From Pseudomonadota bacterium (lineage in GTDB: Bacteria > Myxococcota_A > UBA9042): a stretch of DNA of 64,000 bases. The translations under genes were made by a program, and so were the position numbers. This document shows positions 1,804-55,894 of this stretch, piece by piece. Under the pieces are notes generated by a model. That model saw nothing but the letters and a program-made list of their open reading frames with translations. It searched no databases and was not told the origin of the DNA. Each line of letters starts with the position of its first letter. Positions within the stretch are counted from its first letter, which is position 1. The stretch covers positions 696 through 64,695 of the forward strand of contig SXRM01000319.1 of NCBI GenBank assembly GCA_005792545.1, in the 5' to 3' direction.

Positions 1804-2781
1804 ATGGCGATGTCGCTTGAAATCCTCGCTGCTGACGGCCTGGCGACCGTACAGGACCTCAGCCGGCCAGGCCTCGGCCACCTGGGCATCGCGGAATCCG
1901 GCGCGTGCGATCGCGCAAGTCACCGGAAGGCGCAACTGTTGTGCTTCAACGACGTGCAGACGGCTGGTCTGGAGTTGCAGCAGTGCGACCTGCGTGCTCG
2001 GCTGATCGGCGGACCGCGCTTGTGCTCGGTGGTCGGCGACTGCCGGTGGACAGTGGATGGCCGTGTCTGGCCGCCCGGACGGTCGGTGTGGGTTGAAGCG
2101 GGTCAGGAAATTCGAGCTGAGCCGGCCAGCGGCGGCTGCCGAACCTACCTGGCTCTGTCCGGTGGCATCGACGTACCGCGACTCGGCGGCAGCGCGTCGA
2201 CCCATGTTTTCGCCAGGCTTGGCGGCTGGCATGGTCGCGGCTTGCGCGCGGGCGATGCGCTGAAGCTCGGCTTCACGGCGGGCGATTGTCGCGAGTTGAT
2301 GCTCTCCCAGCCCTCGCGATCGCCAGACGGGCAACTGTGCGCAGTATGGACAGCAGCGGCGCGCTTAATTTCGGCGGCCGCGCGGACGCAGCTGGCTAGC
2401 GAGCTGTGGCACGTTGGCGCGCAGAGCGATCGCACGGCAGTTGCGCTGGTCGGAGCGAGGCTGGCGCTCCGCGCAAGTCTGAGCGAGCTTTCGCAGCCGA
2501 CGGCCTGTGGCGCCATTCAGGTCGCGGGCGACGGTACGCCGAGGATCCTGCTGCGGGATCGGCCGACCATCGGTGGCTTTCCCCAAGTGGCCGTGATCGC
2601 GACCACCAGTCTGGACGACGCCGGCCAACTCCGTCCGGGCGACGCCGTCCGCCTGCAGTTCGTGTCGCCGGCACAAGCACGTCGTGCCTTGCGCGAGCGG
2701 CACCAGCTGCAGACGGCTTTGGAAACCTGTCTGGTGCCGGCGTGGCCACCGAGCTCGCGCCAGTTGTTCCAGTTGCTGTGA
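1804..2781 (+). CDS. pxpC: 5-oxoprolinase subunit C (PxpC/KipA, allophanate hydrolase subunit 2 family)
   Basis: ATG at 1804, 8 nt after the pxpB stop; the track's 1768 start would overlap pxpB. N-terminal ATVQDLSRPGLGHLGIAESGACD matches the subunit-2 family signature. Confidence 0.8.
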   Translation: MAMSLEILAADGLATVQDLSRPGLGHLGIAESGACDRASHRKAQLLCFNDVQTAGLELQQCDLRARLIGGPRLCSVVGDCRWTVDGRVWPPGRSVWVEAGQEIRAEPASGGCRTYLALSGGIDVPRLGGSASTHVFARLGGWHGRGLRAGDALKLGFTAGDCRELMLSQPSRSPDGQLCAVWTAAARLISAAARTQLASELWHVGAQSDRTAVALVGARLALRASLSELSQPTACGAIQVAGDGTPRILLRDRPTIGGFPQVAVIATTSLDDAGQLRPGDAVRLQFVSPAQARRALRERHQLQTALETCLVPAWPPSSRQLFQLL

Positions 2782-2793
2782 CGCCGCACGTTG

Positions 2794-2848
2794 CCGTCAT
2801 CGGGCGGGAGCCGTCATCGGGCGGGAGCCGTCATCGGGCGGGAGCCGT
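2794..2848. repeat. 17-bp perfect tandem repeat (CCGTCATCGGGCGGGAG) x3 plus a 4-nt partial copy
   Basis: Read directly: copies at 2794-2810, 2811-2827 and 2828-2844, then CCGT. It lies in the 96-nt gap between the convergent pxpC and Nudix stops. The unit length is not a multiple of 3. Confidence 0.9.
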
Positions 2849-2877
2849 TGGCCGTTGTCTTCGCCTGGGACAGCGCC

Positions 2878-3291
2878 TCACGTGCCCCATTTGGCGACCA
2901 GGCGCTCGATAGCGGCTTGATCGACCGGCGGAAAGCGATAGTCACCGAGTTCGGCCGGGCTCACCCAGCGGAACTCCCAAACCCCAATGCGGCGCGGCGA
3001 ACCGCTCACGATTCGCGCCGGAAAGCTGTGAAAGTCGATGGTATAGCGCTCGTAGTCGGCCACCATGCTGGCTGCCGGCCCCGTGGTCTGCACGACCACG
3101 TCCAGTTCTTCCTGGATTTCGCGGATGAGGGCCGCCTCATCCGTCTCGCCCGGCTCGACCTTGCCTCCGGGAAACTCCCAGAGCAGCGGCAGGGCCGCGT
3201 GGGGCAGTCGCTGGGTGATCAGATAGTTGCCGCGGTCGTCGCAGATCTCTGCGGCAACGACGCGCAGCGTGCGCTTGCTTGGTTCAGGCAT
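2878..3291 (-). CDS. Nudix hydrolase (MutT-like)
   Basis: Nudix box GGKVEPGETDEAALIREIQEELD. I chose the ATG at 3291 (MPEPSKRTLRVV...) because the track's start at 3330 would abut the tRNA. Confidence 0.8.
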   Translation of the reverse strand: MPEPSKRTLRVVAAEICDDRGNYLITQRLPHAALPLLWEFPGGKVEPGETDEAALIREIQEELDVVVQTTGPAASMVADYERYTIDFHSFPARIVSGSPRRIGVWEFRWVSPAELGDYRFPPVDQAAIERLVAKWGT

Positions 3292-3330
3292 TGTGGGCGC
3301 TTGGGTTCGCTGGCCGTGTTGGCAGCACAT

Positions 3331-3427
3331 TGGCGGAAGTGCAGGAGAATCGAACTCCCCCGAGACGCTCTTCGCGCCTCACAACAGTTTTGAAGACTGA
3401 GGGATTCACCAGAACCCGCGCACCTCC
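3331..3427 (-). tRNA. selC: tRNA-Sec (anticodon UCA), 97 nt
   Basis: The reverse complement reads GGAGGTGC-GC-GGGTTC-TGGT-GAATCC-CTCAGT-CTTCAAA-ACTGTT-(23-nt variable arm with GAGGCGC/GCGTCTC stem)-GGGAG-TTCGATT-CTCCT-GCACTTCC-G-CCA. Acceptor stem is 8 bp and T stem 5 bp (bacterial 8/5 Sec architecture). D stem is 6 bp with a 4-nt loop. Anticodon loop is CU-UCA-AA and the 3' end is ...CTTCCGCCA as in E. coli selC. Caveat: the anticodon stem has only 4 Watson-Crick pairs plus two mismatches at its base. Confidence 0.85.
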
Positions 3428-3557
3428 AGCGCTACGATGCAGCGCCGCAGGGCCGGTCGTCAAGCAGGCGCCGCGGAAACTGTCGTCGCAGGCGAACCGT
3501 GGTACGCTGGTCAGCCGGGCGGGTCCGCCACACAAGGTCACCGTGGTCGCAACACGC

Positions 3558-4823
3558 ATGAGCCCGTTCACGCCCGAAAAGACCCGGCTGGTCGTAGTGC
3601 TGGTCGGCCTGCCCGCCCGCGGCAAGACCCACATCGGCCGCAAGATGGCCCGCTATTTGAATTGGTTGGGGTTTGTCACCCGCGCCTTCAATATTGGCGA
3701 CTATCGGCGGACACGGCTGGGCCGCCACCACCGTCACGACTTCTTCAATCCAACCAATGAAGAGGGCAACCGGCTGCGCAACGAGCTGGCGACGTTGGCA
3801 CTGGAAGACCTGGTGGCCTGGATGCGCAGTGGCGGCCAGGTCGGTATCTATGACGCCACCAATACCACGACGGCACGTCGGCGGGTGGTGTACGACCGTT
3901 GTTCGCAGATGGGTCTGGACGTGGTGTTTGTCGAGTCGGTATGCGAGGACCCTGCGATCATCGAGTCCAACATTCGCGAGACCAAGCTGACTTCGCCGGA
4001 CTACGAGGGCGTGGACCCGGACGAGGCCGCGCGCGACTTCCGCGCCCGCATCGACCACTACACGCGCGCCTACGAGCCGGTCCACGAAGAGAATTACAGC
4101 TACATCAAGCTCATCGACGTCGGCCGCGTCATCGTGATGCACCAGATCCAGGGCTACGTGACCGGCAAGCTTGTGCACTTCTTGATGAACATGCACCTGG
4201 TACGGCGCCCGATTTGGCTGACCCGCCACGGCGAGTCCGAGTTCAACGTTCAGGGGCGCATCGGCGGCGACAGTCCGCTGACGTCCAACGGCCGCCACTA
4301 TGCCCGGGCGCTGGCGTCGTTCGTGCGCGAACACGCGATTCGGCCGCCGACAGTGTGGACGAGCACGCTGCGCAGAACCGTCGAGACAGCACGCGAGCTG
4401 CACCTGCCGTTCATGCCGTGGCGGGCGCTCGACGAGATCGACGGCGGTGTCTGTGACGGCATGACCTACGCCGAGATCGCGGAGCGCATGCCGGAAGAAT
4501 ACGCAGCGCGGCAGGCCGACAAGCTCAACTACCGCTATCCGCGCGGGGAGAGTTACGTCGATGTCACCCAGCGCTTGGAGCCGGTGATTCTGGAGCTGGA
4601 ACGCGAGCGCGAGCCGGTGCTGGTGGTCGGCCACCAGGCCGTGTTGCGGGTGCTGTACGCCTATTTCACCGATCGCCGGCCAGAGCAGGTGCTGCGCCAC
4701 GATGTGCCGATCCACACCGTCATTGAGCTGACGCCTGGCCCGTACGCTTTTACCGAACGCCGGTTTGCGCTGGAGTTGTCGGGCGCCGACCTCGCCGACA
4801 TCGGCGACGCGATGCGCGACTGA
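3558..4823 (+). CDS. bifunctional 6-phosphofructo-2-kinase / fructose-2,6-bisphosphatase-like protein (eukaryote-type PFKFB architecture)
   Basis: ATG at 3558 (MSPFTPEKTRLVVVLVGLPARGKTHIGRKMARYLNWLGFVTRAFNIGDYRR). This is the 6PF2K P-loop block almost as in animal PFKFB. The C-terminal half carries the histidine-phosphatase RHGESEFNVQGRIGGDSPLT motif. Confidence 0.8.
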   Translation: MSPFTPEKTRLVVVLVGLPARGKTHIGRKMARYLNWLGFVTRAFNIGDYRRTRLGRHHRHDFFNPTNEEGNRLRNELATLALEDLVAWMRSGGQVGIYDATNTTTARRRVVYDRCSQMGLDVVFVESVCEDPAIIESNIRETKLTSPDYEGVDPDEAARDFRARIDHYTRAYEPVHEENYSYIKLIDVGRVIVMHQIQGYVTGKLVHFLMNMHLVRRPIWLTRHGESEFNVQGRIGGDSPLTSNGRHYARALASFVREHAIRPPTVWTSTLRRTVETARELHLPFMPWRALDEIDGGVCDGMTYAEIAERMPEEYAARQADKLNYRYPRGESYVDVTQRLEPVILELEREREPVLVVGHQAVLRVLYAYFTDRRPEQVLRHDVPIHTVIELTPGPYAFTERRFALELSGADLADIGDAMRD

Positions 4824-5042
4824 GCGCCTCTGACCACGCAGGTGGCGCAGTCGCGGTGAACTTTTCACCGGCGTCTGTCAACTGGTAACGGTGGTGTGCG
4901 GCATTGGGCCGCGAAGTACGAAGCAGCTGAAATTGCGTCGGGTGTGGCGCGACATGCCCGGACGAACGATTGTCCTTGCGGTGGGCGACTGGGCGTGCCA
5001 GCGTTTTCACAGTAATTTCGACCGGTGCAAGTGAGGGGTCGC

Positions 5043-5486
5043 ATGGACTGGTATTTCGACCTTGCGGACACGGCCAATGCCGAAACGTGGAGCCAGATGC
5101 AGGCGCTGGCCGTGACCGTCCGGCCGTGCGGTGTAGCGTTGGCGGCGTCGACGCAGCGGCAAGCGGCCTCGGACGTGATGGCCCTTGCGGCAATCCGTTG
5201 GGTTGCTCGCGAGCGGCCAGACTGCTTGGCCGCCTTCGTGGCGGCACTACTCGGTGAGGTAGCCGCAGGCCGTCCCGTGCGCTCACCACAGCATCTGTGC
5301 GATGTGGCCGGCGGCGCCGGGCTCAGCCGCCTCGCCGTGGACGCCGCGGCCGAAGCGGAAGTCTACGGCCACCTGGCCCAATGGCGCGCACTCGGCGGGC
5401 CTGAGTTGCCTTGTCTGGTGCGCGCGGACGGCCACGTGCTGCTGGGCCGCAATCCGCCAGACCACGTCGCGCAATTCGCCGCTTGA
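5043..5486 (+). CDS. hypothetical protein
   Basis: ATG at 5043 preceded by GAGGGG. Codon usage is consistent with neighbouring genes. No recognisable motifs. Confidence 0.4.
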   Translation: MDWYFDLADTANAETWSQMQALAVTVRPCGVALAASTQRQAASDVMALAAIRWVARERPDCLAAFVAALLGEVAAGRPVRSPQHLCDVAGGAGLSRLAVDAAAEAEVYGHLAQWRALGGPELPCLVRADGHVLLGRNPPDHVAQFAA

Positions 5487-5807
5487 GTTGCGCGCGATCA
5501 CGACCGTCGCCGGCCCGGCGTCGCTGCGCCTGCGCTCGATAGTGCGCGACGAGCGATAGGCGTGTGTCGGACTGGCGACTGGCAGCTCGCAACAGTTTCC
5601 TTGTGACTTCAATGCACTTCGCCGACTGCGGCCAAGTCCAGGCTTGCGGGCTTTGGCGGTGTGGAGCGTCAATCCGGCGCAACAACCCCACCGACCACGA
5701 TGGGTGCGGATCGCGCTTTGGGGTCTCCGGCGAGGCGCGCGGAACCAGTGAATACGCATGGCGTTCAGGTTGAACCCGGCGGCTGAAGCCGCAGGCTGAC
5801 TGTACGA

Positions 5808-5834
5808 AGCCCGGCCTGCGCCGGGCTATTTTTC
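5808..5834 (+). terminator. intrinsic (rho-independent) terminator-like hairpin plus T-run
   Basis: AGCCCGGC-CTGC-GCCGGGCT forms a perfect 8-bp stem followed by ATTTTT. T-runs are rare in this sequence. The nearest same-strand stop codon is about 320 nt upstream. Confidence 0.55.
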
Positions 5835-6127
5835 CCTTGTGATGATCTAGCCTTGCGGAGGCAAGGCTTTGCACCCACAGGCCGCGGCTTTAGCCGCCGG
5901 CAGTATTTAGCAGGACCGTGTGGGTACCGTGCCGGCGATCGCCCCCATTTCAGGAACCGCACCCGACCACGATTGCCGAGCTAGCGCTGGTTGTCACGAC
6001 ACCGTAGAATCGGCGCGCCGGCCATGCTGCTGTCCGCCAGAACTCAGGGTCGAACGTCAGATCCCGAGTACCGACAAGCTGAGCGGGTCGCGCGCTGGGA
6101 GCACGGCGCGCCAAAGGATCGATCGGC

Positions 6128-7702
6128 GTGTGGCGGATCTGCTCCCAATGCGGCAACCGAACAGACGCTTTCGTCTGTGACCGCGACCAGAACCCCACTG
6201 AAATTATCCGCGCCGACACCGAGTTTCCTGGTCGCCTGCACCAGGGCGACGTCCTGCTGAACCACTATGTAGTGGCAGATCTGGTCGGCGTAGGTGGCAT
6301 GGGCGCAGTCTACAAGGGTCAGCAGCGCGAGACGCACCAGGCCGTCGCCATCAAGGTGCTGTGGCGCGATCTGGCCGCCGACACCGTCGAGGTCCGGCGC
6401 TTCACCCGCGAGGCGCGAGCGGCAAGCCTGCTTGCGCACCCCAATGTGGTGCGCGTCATCGATTTTGGCAGCGACGCCAAGTCCAAGTCGCTGTTCATCA
6501 TCATGGAGTACCTGGTCGGCGCCAAGCTCAGCGACACCTTGCGCGTCGCGCCGATGCTGGAACCCGCACGCGTCGTGCACATCTGCGCGCAGGTCTGCAA
6601 AGCGCTGGAAGAGGCTCACCGACGCGGCATCATCCACCGCGACGTCAAGCCCGATAACATCTTCTTGCAAGAGGTGGCGGGCGAGCGCGACTTCGCCAAA
6701 ATCCTCGACTTCGGCCTCGCCAAGTTCATTACCGGCGAGTACGAGCGCGATCAGCTGACGCGCAGCGGCTTTGTGGTCGGTTCGCCCGAGTACATGGCGC
6801 CAGAGCAAGCGTCTGGCAGCCCGGTGGGGCCTTCGGCCGACCTGTATTCGCTGGGCGTGGTGCTCTACGAGTGCCTGACCGGTCGGCTGCCCTTTGATGC
6901 CGCAAGCACAGCCGAGGTGCTGCGCAAGCACATTCTAGAAGGCCCACCGCGGCTGATCGGAGAGCCCGGCACCGAGCACATCCCGTTGGCGCTCGAAGAG
7001 GTCGTACTGCGCTGCCTGGCCAAGGATCCGGCCGAGCGACCACCGACGGCCGATACGCTGCGCATCCAGCTTTTGCAGGCGTGTGACCGCCGCAAGGGCG
7101 AGGGCAAGTGGCCGGCGGGTGGTGCGCTGGCCGCGCCGATTCGCGCTCCCGGTTCGCTCGAGGAGGCGGGGCCGGCGCCGCACGCGCCGACGTCTGTGCA
7201 ACTGGATGACGACGGCCGGGCGACCGCGCCGACGGCGGAGCACGTCGTCCACTCGTTGGAACCGACCAGCTGGCCCACCTTGCGCGACAACGAAGTGGTG
7301 GCGACCGGCACTGGAAGTGGCGAATTCCAAGGTGCCGACCAGGATCGCACGCCGCGCGAGCCGATTGCGGCGATGGCACGCGGAGCAGTGCCGGACATCG
7401 CGACCCATAGCCAGACACGGCCCGACATGCCGGTGGCGCCGACCGCACTGGCGGCCGTGGTGCGCGAGGATGCGCTGCCCACCCTGGCGGATATTGCCGA
7501 CGCGGGCCGCACCTCGCGACCGCTTACGGACGCGCTGGATCGCGACTCGACCGACGTGCTAGACACCAGCCTGCGCCCGGGTGCGCAAGGCCGATCGGCG
7601 CCGACGCTAGACCGCGGGCAGGCTGGACCGTCATACTGGCTGTGGGTCGTCGCTGCGGCCGTCGTCATTGCGGCGCTGCTCGTCGTTGCGACCATGAAGT
7701 AG
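6128..7702 (+). CDS. Ser/Thr protein kinase with N-terminal Cys4 ribbon-like motif and C-terminal membrane anchor
   Basis: Kinase motifs GVGGMGAVYKG, AIKVL, HRDVKPDNIFL, DFGLAKF and GSPEYMAPE. N-terminus CSQCGNRTDAFVC. C-terminal hydrophobic segment WLWVVAAAVVIAALLVVA. GTG start; exact start uncertain. Confidence 0.9.
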   Translation: MWRICSQCGNRTDAFVCDRDQNPTEIIRADTEFPGRLHQGDVLLNHYVVADLVGVGGMGAVYKGQQRETHQAVAIKVLWRDLAADTVEVRRFTREARAASLLAHPNVVRVIDFGSDAKSKSLFIIMEYLVGAKLSDTLRVAPMLEPARVVHICAQVCKALEEAHRRGIIHRDVKPDNIFLQEVAGERDFAKILDFGLAKFITGEYERDQLTRSGFVVGSPEYMAPEQASGSPVGPSADLYSLGVVLYECLTGRLPFDAASTAEVLRKHILEGPPRLIGEPGTEHIPLALEEVVLRCLAKDPAERPPTADTLRIQLLQACDRRKGEGKWPAGGALAAPIRAPGSLEEAGPAPHAPTSVQLDDDGRATAPTAEHVVHSLEPTSWPTLRDNEVVATGTGSGEFQGADQDRTPREPIAAMARGAVPDIATHSQTRPDMPVAPTALAAVVREDALPTLADIADAGRTSRPLTDALDRDSTDVLDTSLRPGAQGRSAPTLDRGQAGPSYWLWVVAAAVVIAALLVVATMK

Positions 7703-7723
7703 CCATTCGTGGTTTGGAGACCC

Positions 7724-9271
7724 ATGCGAACCAGCGGCGCGACAAAGCAGCGAGGCGCCGCCTGGTTTGCGGTTTGCCTCGCCGTCACCGTTTGGGGCTG
7801 CGGCGAGGACGCTTCCGTCACGCCAACGCTGTCGGCCGGTACGGCAGGCGATGCCGGCGTAGGCGAAGCGCCAGTGGCGCAAGACGGCGCATCTTTGGAC
7901 CAGGCCGCCCTCGATGTGGGCACTTCGATTTCGGACAGCGACGTTGCGACCGGGCAAGACGCGACAGTCACAACCGACGACAGCGACGGCGCGGTCGGCG
8001 AGGCCGCAGCGGTCGACGTCGAGGTGGCTGCCGCAGACGGCCAGACCGGCGAAGATGGCGCATCCAGCGATGGGCTGGCCGACGGCCTCGCCGACGCGAC
8101 AGCAGCCGACCAGGCGATCGCGGACCAAACTGCCAGCGATCAGACTGTCGCAGACGCGTTGCAAGCGGACGCGCTACAAGATACTGCCGCGGACATCCCT
8201 TCCGGTGCTGCGGATGGAGGCGACGGCGCCGGTACTGAGTGCCCCAAGCTCTGCAATGGCGGCTGCGGCGGCGGCGTGTGCCACATCGTCAACGCGCAAT
8301 ACCCGATTTGCCCCGACGGCATGCCGTGCGAGGTGGTGTGCAACGTCGCCAACGCCTGCCCGACGCCGGTGGTGTGCGGCAACGGTCCGTGCACGGTCAT
8401 CTGTGGCGGCAACGGCGCCGTTGGCACCTGCAAAGGCACGGTCATCTGCAAGAACGCGCCGAGCTGCGACATCACCTGCAACGGCACCGACGCCTGCGCG
8501 GGCAAGGTGTTCTGCGGCATGGGCACCTGCAAGATCGCGTGCGGCACCAATGGCGCCATCGGCACCTGCAAGGGCGGCACCGACTGCAGCCTGGCCAAGA
8601 CCTGCGACGTCGCCTGCACCGGCAGCTACGCGTGCAAGGGCACGGTCGCCTGCGGCGGCAAGTGCAAGGTCGCCTGCGGCGCGACCGGCGGGGTCGGCAC
8701 CTGCGAGGGCGGCATCGACTGCGCCGACGGCGACAGCTGTGACCTGCAGTGCGTCGGCATGTATGCGTGCAAGGGCGACGTCGAGTGCGGCAGCGGCCCT
8801 TGCACGGTGGCCTGCGGAATGGGCGGCGGCGCGGCCACTTGTGGGGCCAATGTGCGCTGCAACGACGCCCCGACTTGCAAGGTCGATTGCCACGGCAGCA
8901 ATGCCTGCGGTGGCCAGGTCGAATGCGGCACCAGCGACTGCAACGTCAACTGCGGCGCAGGCGGTGCCATTGGCACATGCGGCGGCGGCATCGACTGCAC
9001 CGACGGCAAGTCGTGCAAGCTCAGCTGCCTGGGCAGCAACGCCTGCGCGGGTGGTCAGGTCGAATGTGGCCAGGGTCCGTGCCAGATCGCCTGCGGAGCC
9101 AAGCCCTCTGCCGGTTCAGGGCAGTGCAAGAACGTCGATTGCTCCAATGCTTGCGCCTGTGAAGTCAGCTGCGCCGGGCTCAACAGCTGCAAAAGCCTGA
9201 TTTGCCCGGCGGGCTGCGCCGGTGGCAGCGGGTGCTCGGCGTTGTCCAAGACCTGCAACGCCTGTCCGTAG
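7724..9271 (+). CDS. cysteine-rich tandem-repeat lipoprotein (unclassified repeat family)
   Basis: ATG at 7724 gives the signal MRTSGATKQRGAAWFAVCLAVTVWGC (lipobox). An acidic D/A/T-rich linker follows. Then come six tandem ~46-aa units with 8 Cys each, roughly nt 8327-9150. I counted 62 Cys in the C-terminal ~340 aa. The gene starts 22 nt after the kinase stop. Confidence 0.8.
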   Translation: MRTSGATKQRGAAWFAVCLAVTVWGCGEDASVTPTLSAGTAGDAGVGEAPVAQDGASLDQAALDVGTSISDSDVATGQDATVTTDDSDGAVGEAAAVDVEVAAADGQTGEDGASSDGLADGLADATAADQAIADQTASDQTVADALQADALQDTAADIPSGAADGGDGAGTECPKLCNGGCGGGVCHIVNAQYPICPDGMPCEVVCNVANACPTPVVCGNGPCTVICGGNGAVGTCKGTVICKNAPSCDITCNGTDACAGKVFCGMGTCKIACGTNGAIGTCKGGTDCSLAKTCDVACTGSYACKGTVACGGKCKVACGATGGVGTCEGGIDCADGDSCDLQCVGMYACKGDVECGSGPCTVACGMGGGAATCGANVRCNDAPTCKVDCHGSNACGGQVECGTSDCNVNCGAGGAIGTCGGGIDCTDGKSCKLSCLGSNACAGGQVECGQGPCQIACGAKPSAGSGQCKNVDCSNACACEVSCAGLNSCKSLICPAGCAGGSGCSALSKTCNACP

Positions 9272-9321: not shown

Positions 9322-9544
9322 CTAGTAGGCGAAACCCGAAGTTCGCGTTGGAATGGCGTTTGGTTTGATGGAGGAAATTCGGCGTATATTTCGCCTACTA
9401 GCAGCTTGTTTCGTCAAGGGGGCTCGCCGCCCCCTCGCGCGCGTCGGCGCGCTCACCCCTGCCTGCGGCCGCAGCGGCGGCCGCGCGCACTTCGCCCTTG
9501 TTGCGCGGCGGAACCCGCCGCGAACTTCGGGCCGGAAGTACTAG
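9322..9544. repeat. nested inverted repeats / MITE-like 223-bp element in a convergent intergenic region
   Basis: CTAGTAGGCGAAA (9322-9334) is perfectly complementary to TTTCGCCTACTAG (9389-9401). CCCGAAGTTCGCG (9335-9347) is perfectly complementary to CGCGAACTTCGGG (9519-9531). The outer ends are CTAGTA...TACTAG. The 26-nt termini match at 19 of 26 positions. The interior is noticeably AT-richer than its surroundings. Confidence 0.6.
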
Positions 9545-24099: not shown

Positions 24100-25539
24100 A
24101 TGCACTTTCCATCTGCCGCCGGATCGCCCACTGCCCCGCGCGCCCGCCACCGCACCGGCACCGTGGTGCTGGCCGCGCTGGCCGCCCTGTCCGTCGCGGA
24201 CCCGGTGGCGTGGCTGCGTTTGGCGCAAACTGGCCACTATTTGTCGCAGGCGCACGCGCAAGCCGGCATCAATTCGACCTTAGCGGTCATCGTGGTCGCG
24301 ACCCAAAAGAAGGCGGGCGACGACGCCGAGGCCGTTGAGCGCCTGCTGGCCGACGGCACGGCACGACTGGACACGGTGCGATTGTTCCCGCTTTCGCCGA
24401 TCCCAAACGTCGAGGGCGCTGGCTCCGATGTCGAGACGGCGACAGGAGACCTGGTCGAAAATGCCCTGCGCGCCCTGCTCTTGCGCACGCCCAAGCAAGC
24501 GCAAGAGCGGATCGGCGCGGCGGTGGCCAAGCTCAAGGACCAGCCGATGGCCGGCGATGAGCGGCTATACGCGCGACTGTACAAAGCGCAGGGTCTGGCA
24601 CTGCTGGCGACCAATGAGATGGTGCCGGCGCGCGATGCGCTGCTCAGGTCGTTGATTCTGGCCCCGGCGCAGACCGACGAGGAATACGCTGGCTACGGTG
24701 CCAACGCCAAGGAACTGTTCAACGCGTGCAAGCAAATGGTCCAGCGCGGCCAGACGGGCGACCTCAAGATCACGGCGCGCGGCGGCAAGGCGGACATCTG
24801 GATCGACGGACAGTGGCGCGGCGCGGGCACAGCCCAGGCCAATAGCCTGCCCGTGGGCGTGCACCGCATCACAGTGCGCCAAAGTGGCATGTATGCTGAG
24901 CGTCGCTTCGTTGAAGTCGCGCCCGGCAAAAGCACCGCGGTTGAGTTTGACCTCAAACAAGCGCCATTCGGTCCGGACCTAGAACAGGGCCGCGCGGTGC
25001 TCGCCACCAACTTCAAGCAGCCGAGCGTCGTCGAAGATCGGATGCGCGAGCTGCGCAACCAGCTTGGCGCCGACCAGATGCTGGTGGTCCGGCAGGGCAG
25101 CGATAAGAAGGCCACCAAAATGGAAGGCTATTTTCTGTCGGCTGACGGCACGTTCCGCAAGGCAGAAGGCAGCGCCGAAAAGGACGCCAACTATTTCGAC
25201 CATATCGGCGAATTCGTGGCGGAAGTCAGCGGCGCCAAGCTAGGGCCCGATCCGCAGACGGCGCCGCTGGATCTGCGCCAGAGCGCTGTGGTCGTGACGG
25301 GCACGCGCAAGGCCGGCGACACGGTAGGGGCCGATCCCAACGCTCCGCTGTTCCCGGATGAAGAGGACGGCAAGAAGAAGAAAGCCGTGACCAGTCAGTG
25401 GTGGTTCTGGACCGCAGTGGCCGCCGGCGCTGGCCTGGTCGGCACCGGCATCTACTTCTTGACGCGCGGCGGTGGCGAAGCAGCCGAAGGCGCGGTGGGC
25501 ACCGTGCAGGTCAATCTGGCCAAACCCGACGCGCCTTGA
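24100..25539 (+). CDS. PEGA domain membrane protein
   Basis: PEGA segment DLKITARGGKADIWIDGQWRGAGTAQANSLPVGVHRITV. N-terminal hydrophobic signal/anchor. C-terminal TM WWFWTAVAAGAGLVGTGIYFL. Confidence 0.7.
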   Translation: MHFPSAAGSPTAPRARHRTGTVVLAALAALSVADPVAWLRLAQTGHYLSQAHAQAGINSTLAVIVVATQKKAGDDAEAVERLLADGTARLDTVRLFPLSPIPNVEGAGSDVETATGDLVENALRALLLRTPKQAQERIGAAVAKLKDQPMAGDERLYARLYKAQGLALLATNEMVPARDALLRSLILAPAQTDEEYAGYGANAKELFNACKQMVQRGQTGDLKITARGGKADIWIDGQWRGAGTAQANSLPVGVHRITVRQSGMYAERRFVEVAPGKSTAVEFDLKQAPFGPDLEQGRAVLATNFKQPSVVEDRMRELRNQLGADQMLVVRQGSDKKATKMEGYFLSADGTFRKAEGSAEKDANYFDHIGEFVAEVSGAKLGPDPQTAPLDLRQSAVVVTGTRKAGDTVGADPNAPLFPDEEDGKKKKAVTSQWWFWTAVAAGAGLVGTGIYFLTRGGGEAAEGAVGTVQVNLAKPDAP

Positions 25540-55700: not shown

Positions 55701-55894
55701 TGTCCGCCAGCAAGCTCGACGCCGGTGCGAACGACGCCAAAGACAACTGGTGCTACGCCGGCAAGACTTTTGGCGGCTTGGGCGACCTCGGCTCGCCATC
55801 GGCACCCAACGCGGTCTGCGCGCCGCCACCGGTATCCAAGCCGGCAAGCGTCTGGCAATGGCTTGGGTGGTTCTGGGCGTGGTTTGCCGGGTGA
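52754..55894 (+). CDS. large mosaic lipoprotein: Ig-like repeats, cbEGF-like domains, two lamin-tail domains, thrombospondin type-3 repeats, Myxococcus cysteine-rich repeat
   Basis: ATG at 52754 ([16 protein letters not shown], lipobox). DTDEC/DVDEC/DVNEC cbEGF signatures at about 53940-54360. LTD blocks [10 protein letters not shown]...GEWVEIRN and [10 protein letters not shown]...[8 protein letters not shown]. TSP3 run [15 protein letters not shown]...[17 protein letters not shown]...[15 protein letters not shown] at about 54938-55185. [28 protein letters not shown] is the Myxococcus Cys repeat. Confidence 0.85.
   Translation: [1046 protein letters not shown]

Follow-up and report, generated by a model that had tools for sequence, protein, structure and literature searches.

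The question raised by this locus is whether the minus-strand segment at positions 3331-3427 encodes the tRNA for selenocysteine (Sec), as proposed in an initial annotation made from the sequence alone, and, if so, which proteins such a tRNA would serve. The window, that is, the whole stretch of 64,000 nucleotides analyzed here, corresponds to positions 696-64695 of contig C267 of a metagenome-assembled genome (MAG) of 7.03 Mb in 435 contigs, which is 78% complete with 1.6% contamination. We find that the segment is almost certainly the single-copy selC gene, encoding a bacterial 8/5 tRNA-Sec, of an uncultured Myxococcota bacterium. As such it is a standard gene of a routinely detected kind, in a lineage already known for selenocysteine use.

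ARAGORN returned a tRNA-SeC with the anticodon tca at exactly these coordinates on the minus strand, and this is the sole tRNA that it reported in the 64-kb window. An Rfam cmscan of the window, run at the gathering threshold, placed RF01852 (tRNA-Sec) at 3335-3427 on the same strand (70.3 bits, E 2.4e-12, full model 1-91), and no other Rfam family reached its gathering score within the 64 kb. The covariance-model score, which the initial annotation had named as the place where the assignment might fail, lies well above the RF01852 gathering score of 47. The gene measures 97 nt, including an encoded CCA, and rests on ARAGORN, RF01852, the minimum free energy (MFE) fold, and covariation in 31 sequences. 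Folded without constraints, the 97-nt RNA has an MFE of -43.1 kcal/mol (z = -3.3; 0 of 200 shuffles were as stable), and the resulting structure reproduces the bacterial tRNA-Sec cloverleaf except for the T arm, where an 8-bp stem with a 3-nt loop is drawn. A manual cloverleaf with the canonical 5-bp T stem and 7-nt loop amounts to -41.3 kcal/mol, and it is this version of the T stem, not the MFE drawing, that is supported by covariation.

In this cloverleaf, the acceptor stem (GGAGGUGC/GCACUUCC) has 8 bp with one G.U and is followed by a 2-nt linker, and the D stem (GGGUUC/GAAUCC) has 6 bp closed by the 4-nt loop UGGU. The anticodon stem (UCAGU/ACUGU) consists of four Watson-Crick pairs and a U.U at 27:43, and the 7-nt loop CUUCAAA contains the anticodon UCA (3391..3393, minus strand; tRNA positions 35-37, ARAGORN position 35), which reads UGA. 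The variable arm (UGAGGCGC/GCGUCUCG) has 8 bp, including a G.U and a U.G, and the loop GAAGA, the T stem (GGGAG/CUCCU) has 5 bp and the loop UUCGAUU, and the 3' end, ...CTTCCGCCA, provides G73 and the encoded CCA. The acceptor, T, and D arm dimensions and the loop CUUCAAA that had initially been proposed agree with the manual cloverleaf and with covariation. The long variable arm was also recognized correctly, but its stem had been given as 7 bp and has 8 bp when the terminal U.G is counted. The 8/5 acceptor/T geometry and the 6-bp/4-nt D arm are hallmarks of tRNA-Sec; the 6-bp D stem and 4-nt D loop form the SelA recognition element, and the long variable arm and the G73 discriminator are SerRS identity elements. 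Following the canonical pathway, the selC transcript would fold into the bacterial 8/5 cloverleaf, and seryl-tRNA synthetase would charge it with serine by way of the long variable arm and G73. SelA, recognizing the 6-bp D stem and 4-nt loop, would then turn the serine into selenocysteine with selenophosphate from SelD, and delivery to UGA codons with a downstream SECIS hairpin would fall to SelB, not EF-Tu.

Of 61 related genomes, drawn from its own genus, family, and class, 49 have a tRNA-Sec gene with at least 68 bits against RF01852, and an exact 43-nt match to selC occurs in two Myxococcota MAGs. We aligned 31 of these tRNA-Sec genes. Under the bacterial 8/5 cloverleaf, standard base pairs are formed in 98.7% of cells; shifting the 3' partners by 1-3 columns lowers this value to 42-57%. 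Compensatory changes were detected in 20 of the 32 base pairs and in every helix; the observed values were reached in 0 of 500 shuffles. Covariation involves five of the six D-stem pairs and six of the eight pairs of the variable arm, and the acceptor and T stems are paired in 98.4% and 100% of cells, with two and three compensatory pairs, respectively. The anticodon loop is invariant in 30 of the 31 relatives and the G preceding CCA is invariant in the alignment.

Two mismatches at the base of the anticodon stem had been regarded as the weak point of the assignment. The outer one, C.U, loses this significance: since the anticodon stem of this clade is 5 bp long, virtually no relative pairs the position. 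The inner one, the U.U at 27:43, is real: this position is paired in 27 of the 31 aligned relatives, and the window selC is left with a 4-bp stem. A mismatch at 27:43 is common to the three closest genomes, namely, U.C in L011 and L012 and A.C in the same-genus genome G003, the last of which was checked separately from the alignment. On this comparative evidence, we read the U.U as probably a lineage-specific, tolerated mismatch, and the remainder of the molecule as being under visible purifying selection. Among the relatives, two genomes each possess two tRNA-Sec genes that are different and full scoring (G045: C234:47750-47841 and C248:6582-6674; G022: C68:6545-6637 and C7:4466-4558; loci L035, L047, L040, and L048), and one of the G022 copies does not encode CCA. 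A duplicated selC is unusual, and the second copy in G045 and G022 could be bin contamination.

The initial annotation had deduced from the tRNA that the organism recodes UGA, and had considered that absence of selA, selB, and selD would suggest a relic. All three genes are present, full length, without stops and above their NCBIfam equivalog cut-offs: selA at C189:70554-71684 (TIGR00474, 421 bits versus a cut-off of 267.9), selB on C120 (TIGR00475, 247.9 versus 242.25 bits), and selD on C96 (TIGR00476, 360.9 versus 125 bits). SelB comprises the domains GTP_EFTU, SelB-wing_2, and SelB-wing_3, the latter two being SECIS-binding winged helices, and SelD is a Cys form, with Cys and Lys in the motif ...SATAGCAAK.... 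Since the sel and selenoprotein genes are located on other contigs, their residence in the same genome as selC hangs on binning, a worry that is countered by same-genus genomes carrying the same tRNA and the same TGA genes. With the sel genes and the TGA genes of catalogued families described below, the Sec-decoding trait appears complete in this genome in terms of the parts present, and the reading of UGA as recoded therefore stands at the level of gene content.

At least 10 genes of this genome have an in-frame TGA at a catalytic or redox Cys position, with the frame open on both sides. Besides fdhA, they include genes from a genome-wide scan in which in-frame TGAs with coding-like surroundings were scored by codon log-odds, the training set being 1,363 long ORFs. 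A downstream SECIS-like hairpin with G(U) in the loop was found for 9 of 10 TGA genes. The TGA-interrupted fdhA, peroxiredoxin, and thioredoxin-like genes that had been anticipated elsewhere in the genome are all there, together with others. The fdhA gene, coding for a molybdopterin enzyme, has one in-frame TGA (C122:1872) in HQCAAT-U-HDPTVAGL, and when read through with U as C the product is an FdsA-type formate dehydrogenase alpha subunit (TIGR01591, 758.5 bits versus 666.25). Its U aligns with the Cys of the CARxCHxPT motif in the solved formate dehydrogenases 7qv7 and 6tg9, which we take to be the Mo/W-ligand Cys/Sec position of formate dehydrogenase. The hairpin GUCGCC-GGUCU-GGCGAC lies 15 nt past the TGA and has G23 and U24 in its loop, the loop positions that E. 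coli SelB recognizes in fdhF.

Six further genes, obtained in the scan, belong to known families. These are an AhpC-TSA peroxiredoxin (C396, plus strand, 8148-8150; SGUTAEGC), a rhodanese (C266:24460; CANEHULACH; Pfam Rhodanese), two CMD proteins, namely, a YciW-related (seleno)protein (C200, plus strand, 55786-55788; GCRFULD) and an AhpD-related (seleno)protein (C257, plus strand, 4611-4613; QCEFUTRAH; TIGR01926), a thioredoxin-fold protein matching SelP_N and the TUGYCR-motif (seleno)protein family (C16, plus strand, 7422-7424; SASUGFC), and a UshA-like protein (C219, plus strand, 9354-9356; DPCGU; NF041198 UshA_like_PCGU, 197.7 bits). In all six, the TGA coincides with the redox motif (active-site Cys) of the matched domain, and five of them have a SECIS-like hairpin. 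Because the NCBIfam "(seleno)protein" matches fall short of the curated cut-offs, they indicate relatives, not certified members. When a hairpin was defined as at least 5 bp with GU in a 3-7-nt loop, 20-29 nt after the U of UGA, it was found to follow 6 of the 7 domain-supported TGA genes (fdhA and these six) versus 7.3% of 6,411 random TGAs, corresponding to a binomial P of about 1e-6. The families of all seven genes are contained in published catalogues (PMC1794560, PMC13188914).

Most of the 39 + 470 candidates from the TGA scans were neighboring genes that share a frame, or shadow ORFs on the antisense strand. Those on C171 and C302 were rejected on composition, and on C419 the TGA is a genuine stop, after which a lipoprotein begins. 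An in-frame TGA also interrupts genes for large, secreted, Cys-rich repeat proteins on C82 (minus strand, 9731), C86 (plus strand, 17765), and C189 (minus strand, 41481). The TGA is located exactly at a repeat Cys in C82 and C86 (e.g., GEE-U-EDKN and GT-U-NDGNAC) and at a less clear position in C189. None of these three TGAs is followed by a SECIS-like hairpin, and we rejected them as Sec genes; a pseudogene, an assembly error, or a true stop is the probable explanation. Within the window, four low-scoring in-frame-TGA candidates were obtained and none is convincing, which agrees with the initial annotation.

The mismatch at 27:43 could also mean that selC is a decaying relic, in which case it would mark relaxed selection in a lineage that is losing the Sec trait. 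The closest genomes do share a mismatch at a position that is paired in most relatives, and 70.3 bits is among the lowest scores of the true tRNA-Sec hits. We nevertheless consider decay very improbable: the other 31 pairs, the anticodon loop, G73, and CCA are intact; selA, selB, and selD have retained their full length; the ten TGA genes are open on both sides, with nine keeping the SECIS-like hairpin; and all four genomes with the mismatch have retained TGA genes of the barrel family described below. A UCA anticodon combined with a long variable arm is likewise common to other UGA-reading tRNAs, such as allo-tRNAs or Ser/Leu-derived opal suppressors, which would insert a standard amino acid, and type-II tRNAs of these genomes were indeed found to cross-hit RF01852. 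However, these cross-hits amount to 41-51 bits, against 70.3 bits for the window gene, and the 8+5 geometry and 6-bp/4-nt D arm of the latter are supported by covariation. Moreover, the dedicated partners SelA and SelB are present, and the in-frame TGAs occur only at Cys-equivalent redox positions with hairpins, not genome-wide, all of which makes a suppressor of this kind exceedingly improbable. A genuine tRNA-Sec gene is hence the reading that we follow, and its surroundings bear on a last alternative, in which selC would be an attachment site.

Directly 3' of selC and on the same strand lies a gene for a Nudix (MutT-like) hydrolase (2878..3291, minus strand; 137 aa from the ATG at 3291; Pfam NUDIX_4 and NUDIX), which is possibly cotranscribed with selC. 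By tblastn, nine loci of relatives have Nudix within the 1.5-kb flanks of tRNA-Sec, and the Nudix-selC order is maintained across genera. Subunits of a 5-oxoprolinase-type carboxyltransferase are encoded upstream of the Nudix gene, and the gene order pxpC-Nudix-selC-PFK2 is identical in the closest MAG, L012. On the other side, a gene for a bifunctional 6-phosphofructo-2-kinase/fructose-2,6-bisphosphatase-like (PFK-2/FBPase-2-like) protein (3558..4823, plus strand; Pfam 6PF2K 260.5 bits, His_Phos_1 149.4 bits) diverges from selC and has the same position in L012 and L011. This enzyme type is usually regarded as eukaryotic; the gene here is complete, with both domains, and is found at 87-95% identity in two related MAGs. 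Both promoters presumably sit in the 130-nt divergent intergenic region between selC and this gene (3428..3557). No sigma-70-like promoter or intrinsic terminator was recognizable in 2700-3700, a result that is uninformative because the host is a myxobacterium of 67% GC. The ORFs at 7709-9271 and 5016-5486, both on the plus strand, have good coding statistics and no Pfam match, the former beginning shortly after the end of a Ser/Thr kinase gene (6128-7702). Between pxpC and the Nudix gene, in their convergent gap 480 nt downstream of selC, a 17-nt unit is repeated perfectly in tandem (GCCGTCATCGGGCGGGA x 3.3; 2793-2848); this repeat occurs nowhere else in the genome, and the corresponding gap in L012 lacks it.

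The initial annotation had mentioned selC as a frequent island integration site, and an integrated island or its remnant could accordingly abut the tRNA 3' end. The gene is a known integration hot spot in Enterobacteriaceae, and the tandem repeat just mentioned might be counted in favor of such an event. We give this explanation next to no credence: no second copy of the 31-nt tRNA 3' end was detected in the 64 kb with up to 3 mismatches allowed, as already noted initially, no integrase domain was found among the flanking ORFs, the GC content is flat, and the flanking gene order is conserved. There is therefore no island at selC, and the gene does not serve this genome as an attachment site; the suggestion does not hold for this locus.

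Besides the catalogued families, the tRNA would serve a group of paralogous barrel-thioredoxin proteins encoded at C290:2736-4154 (plus strand), at C376:~4560-5927 (plus strand), and on C47 (minus strand, TGA at minus-strand position 25264). The C290 protein has a signal peptide, the motif AQ-C-A-T-U-ANPSLPVGD, and a C-terminal thioredoxin with WCAPC, and between the U motif and the thioredoxin there are about 310 residues without family assignment. No Pfam or NCBIfam match was obtained for it beyond the thioredoxin, and the barrel domain had no Pfam hit even at E <= 10. A read-through search of relatives produced 53 matches in 25 of 41 genomes, down to 30% identity (loci of the family were collected as L049-L092 and L141). 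Exactly one in-frame TGA is present in 40 of these 53 matches and two TGAs in one match; the TGA is always in one alignment column, in which some homologues have Cys, forming a Sec/Cys pair. The Cys forms (AQCVSC, AQCATC) are L060, P0018, P0019, P0023, P0025, and P0029, and L141, which comes from a different family within the same class, has a UxxU form (U-G-A-U). When one genome per species was scanned, 33 full-length loci were identified, all in Myxococcota-type MAGs and mostly from lakes, and in 29 of them Q-C-x-x-U directly follows the signal peptide. Two loci, L085 (CAMDBH010000015.1) and L092 (CAYTLW010000030.1), are labelled Klebsiella pneumoniae and Enterobacteriaceae, yet carry a Myxococcota-type Sec barrel gene; these labels are probably wrong.

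Eleven orthologues sharing 36-88% amino acid identity have the same codons, CTC CCG GTG GGA GAC, after the TGA, with a Ser or Ala codon in front of them. This conserved stretch, which includes the rare GGA codon, forms the hairpin CUCCC-GGU-GGGAG. The hairpin has a TCGCTCCCGGTGGGAGACG-type sequence, of which the core CTCCCGGTGGGAGAC is identical in the 11 orthologues, and it is absent from the Cys homologue. In a subtype with a PGGA peptide, a compensated hairpin, CGCUCC-CGGGU-GGAGCG, takes its place. Judged by these comparisons, the hairpin of the barrel family is conserved beyond the coding requirement.

The misannotation of TGA genes of which the initial annotation had warned is apparent at least in this family, for which the public records hold truncated proteins. 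The records of the TGA forms begin just past the TGA, e.g., with MGDAISTS..., and therefore have neither the signal peptide nor the Sec motif; they are named "hypothetical protein," "thioredoxin 1," or "thioredoxin family protein." The TGA codon is dual-purpose in this lineage, so that a gene caller treating each TGA as a stop will break up or shorten about ten genes in every genome, and it is for annotation only that the tRNA itself matters.

An AlphaFold2 model based on a 43-sequence alignment had a mean pLDDT of 81.6. It consists of an all-beta domain at about residues 59-339, with a pLDDT of about 90, and a thioredoxin fold at 374-469, the CxxU tail not being confidently placed. A Foldseek search with the barrel model retrieved FapF (5o67, E 2e-12) and Pput2725 (4rl8, TM-score of 0.78-0.82 normalized to the target). 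In FapF and the COG4313 channels, an N-terminal segment plugs the pore. By analogy with these plugs, the N-terminal tail of the barrel protein may gate the pore as a plug under redox control, or serve it as a redox relay for whatever moves through the channel. Both barrel termini would face the periplasm, and the fused thioredoxin may recycle a selenenylsulfide in the tail.

The barrel-thioredoxin family is not among the 119 families tabulated in a 2026 review (PMC13188914). It is probably a selenoprotein family that we have found described nowhere. We hold with moderate confidence the full proposal that selC serves an apparently uncatalogued family, confined so far to Myxococcota, that combines a signal peptide, Q-C-x-x-U (also CxxC or UxxU), a FapF/COG4313-like barrel, and a periplasmic WCxPC thioredoxin. 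If real and undescribed, the family would be an addition to the short list of envelope selenoproteins, and the fusion would provide a clue that such barrels work together with thioredoxins.

Clear similarities exist between the window gene and selC of E. coli K-12 (b3658), which was fetched by coordinates and then aligned, and with RF01852. The UCA in CUUCAAA, the 8/5 geometry, and the 6-bp/4-nt D arm are shared, as are, with the K-12 gene, the long variable arm, G73, and the encoded CCA; the 3' end is identical, as the initial annotation had stated. The last acceptor pair is C-G and the first T-stem pair is G.U in both genes, and the latter is kept in 30 of 31 relatives. In E. coli, the pairs C7-G66, G49.U65, and C50-G64 at the acceptor/T junction are the antideterminants against EF-Tu. 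At these positions, the window gene has the C-G and G.U of E. coli, whereas the third pair, i.e., the second of the T stem, is G-C instead of C-G. The two genes differ further in that their overall identity is about 59%, that the variable arm in the window is 2 nt longer, that 27:43 is U.U, and that the window selC is neither linked to selAB nor an island site. A blastn search of the window selC against E. coli genomes gave no match because the tRNA is too diverged.

The Sec trait as a whole resembles that described for Deltaproteobacteria and Myxococcota (PMC1794560), of which Anaeromyxobacter dehalogenans, with 11 selenoproteins, is an example; a literature search on the selenoproteomes of myxobacteria gave no match. 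Shared features are selA, selB, selC, and selD as well as FdhA, peroxiredoxin, thioredoxin-fold, AhpD-like, and rhodanese-like selenoproteins. The lineage analyzed here differs in having a Cys-form SelD, whereas the Sec form is listed for many deltaproteobacteria, and in being known from freshwater MAGs instead of a cultured anaerobe. As for the barrel-thioredoxin family, the outer membrane selenoproteins listed in PMC13188914 are a TonB-dependent receptor with FCYXU (NF049945) and GSU2204, an MtrB/PioB-like barrel (NF041027). They are, like the family proposed here, Sec-bearing outer membrane beta-barrels, and NF049945 also has a CxxU, but they belong to other barrel families without a fused thioredoxin, and neither model hits the C290 protein. 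In its fold, the family comes close to the channel Pput2725 (COG4313, 4rl8) and the amyloid secretion channel FapF (5o65/5o67), on which the modelled barrel (about 59-339) superposes, and it is set apart from them by having no Pfam or NCBIfam match, by the mature N terminus Q-C-x-x-U, and by the fused C-terminal thioredoxin with WCxPC.
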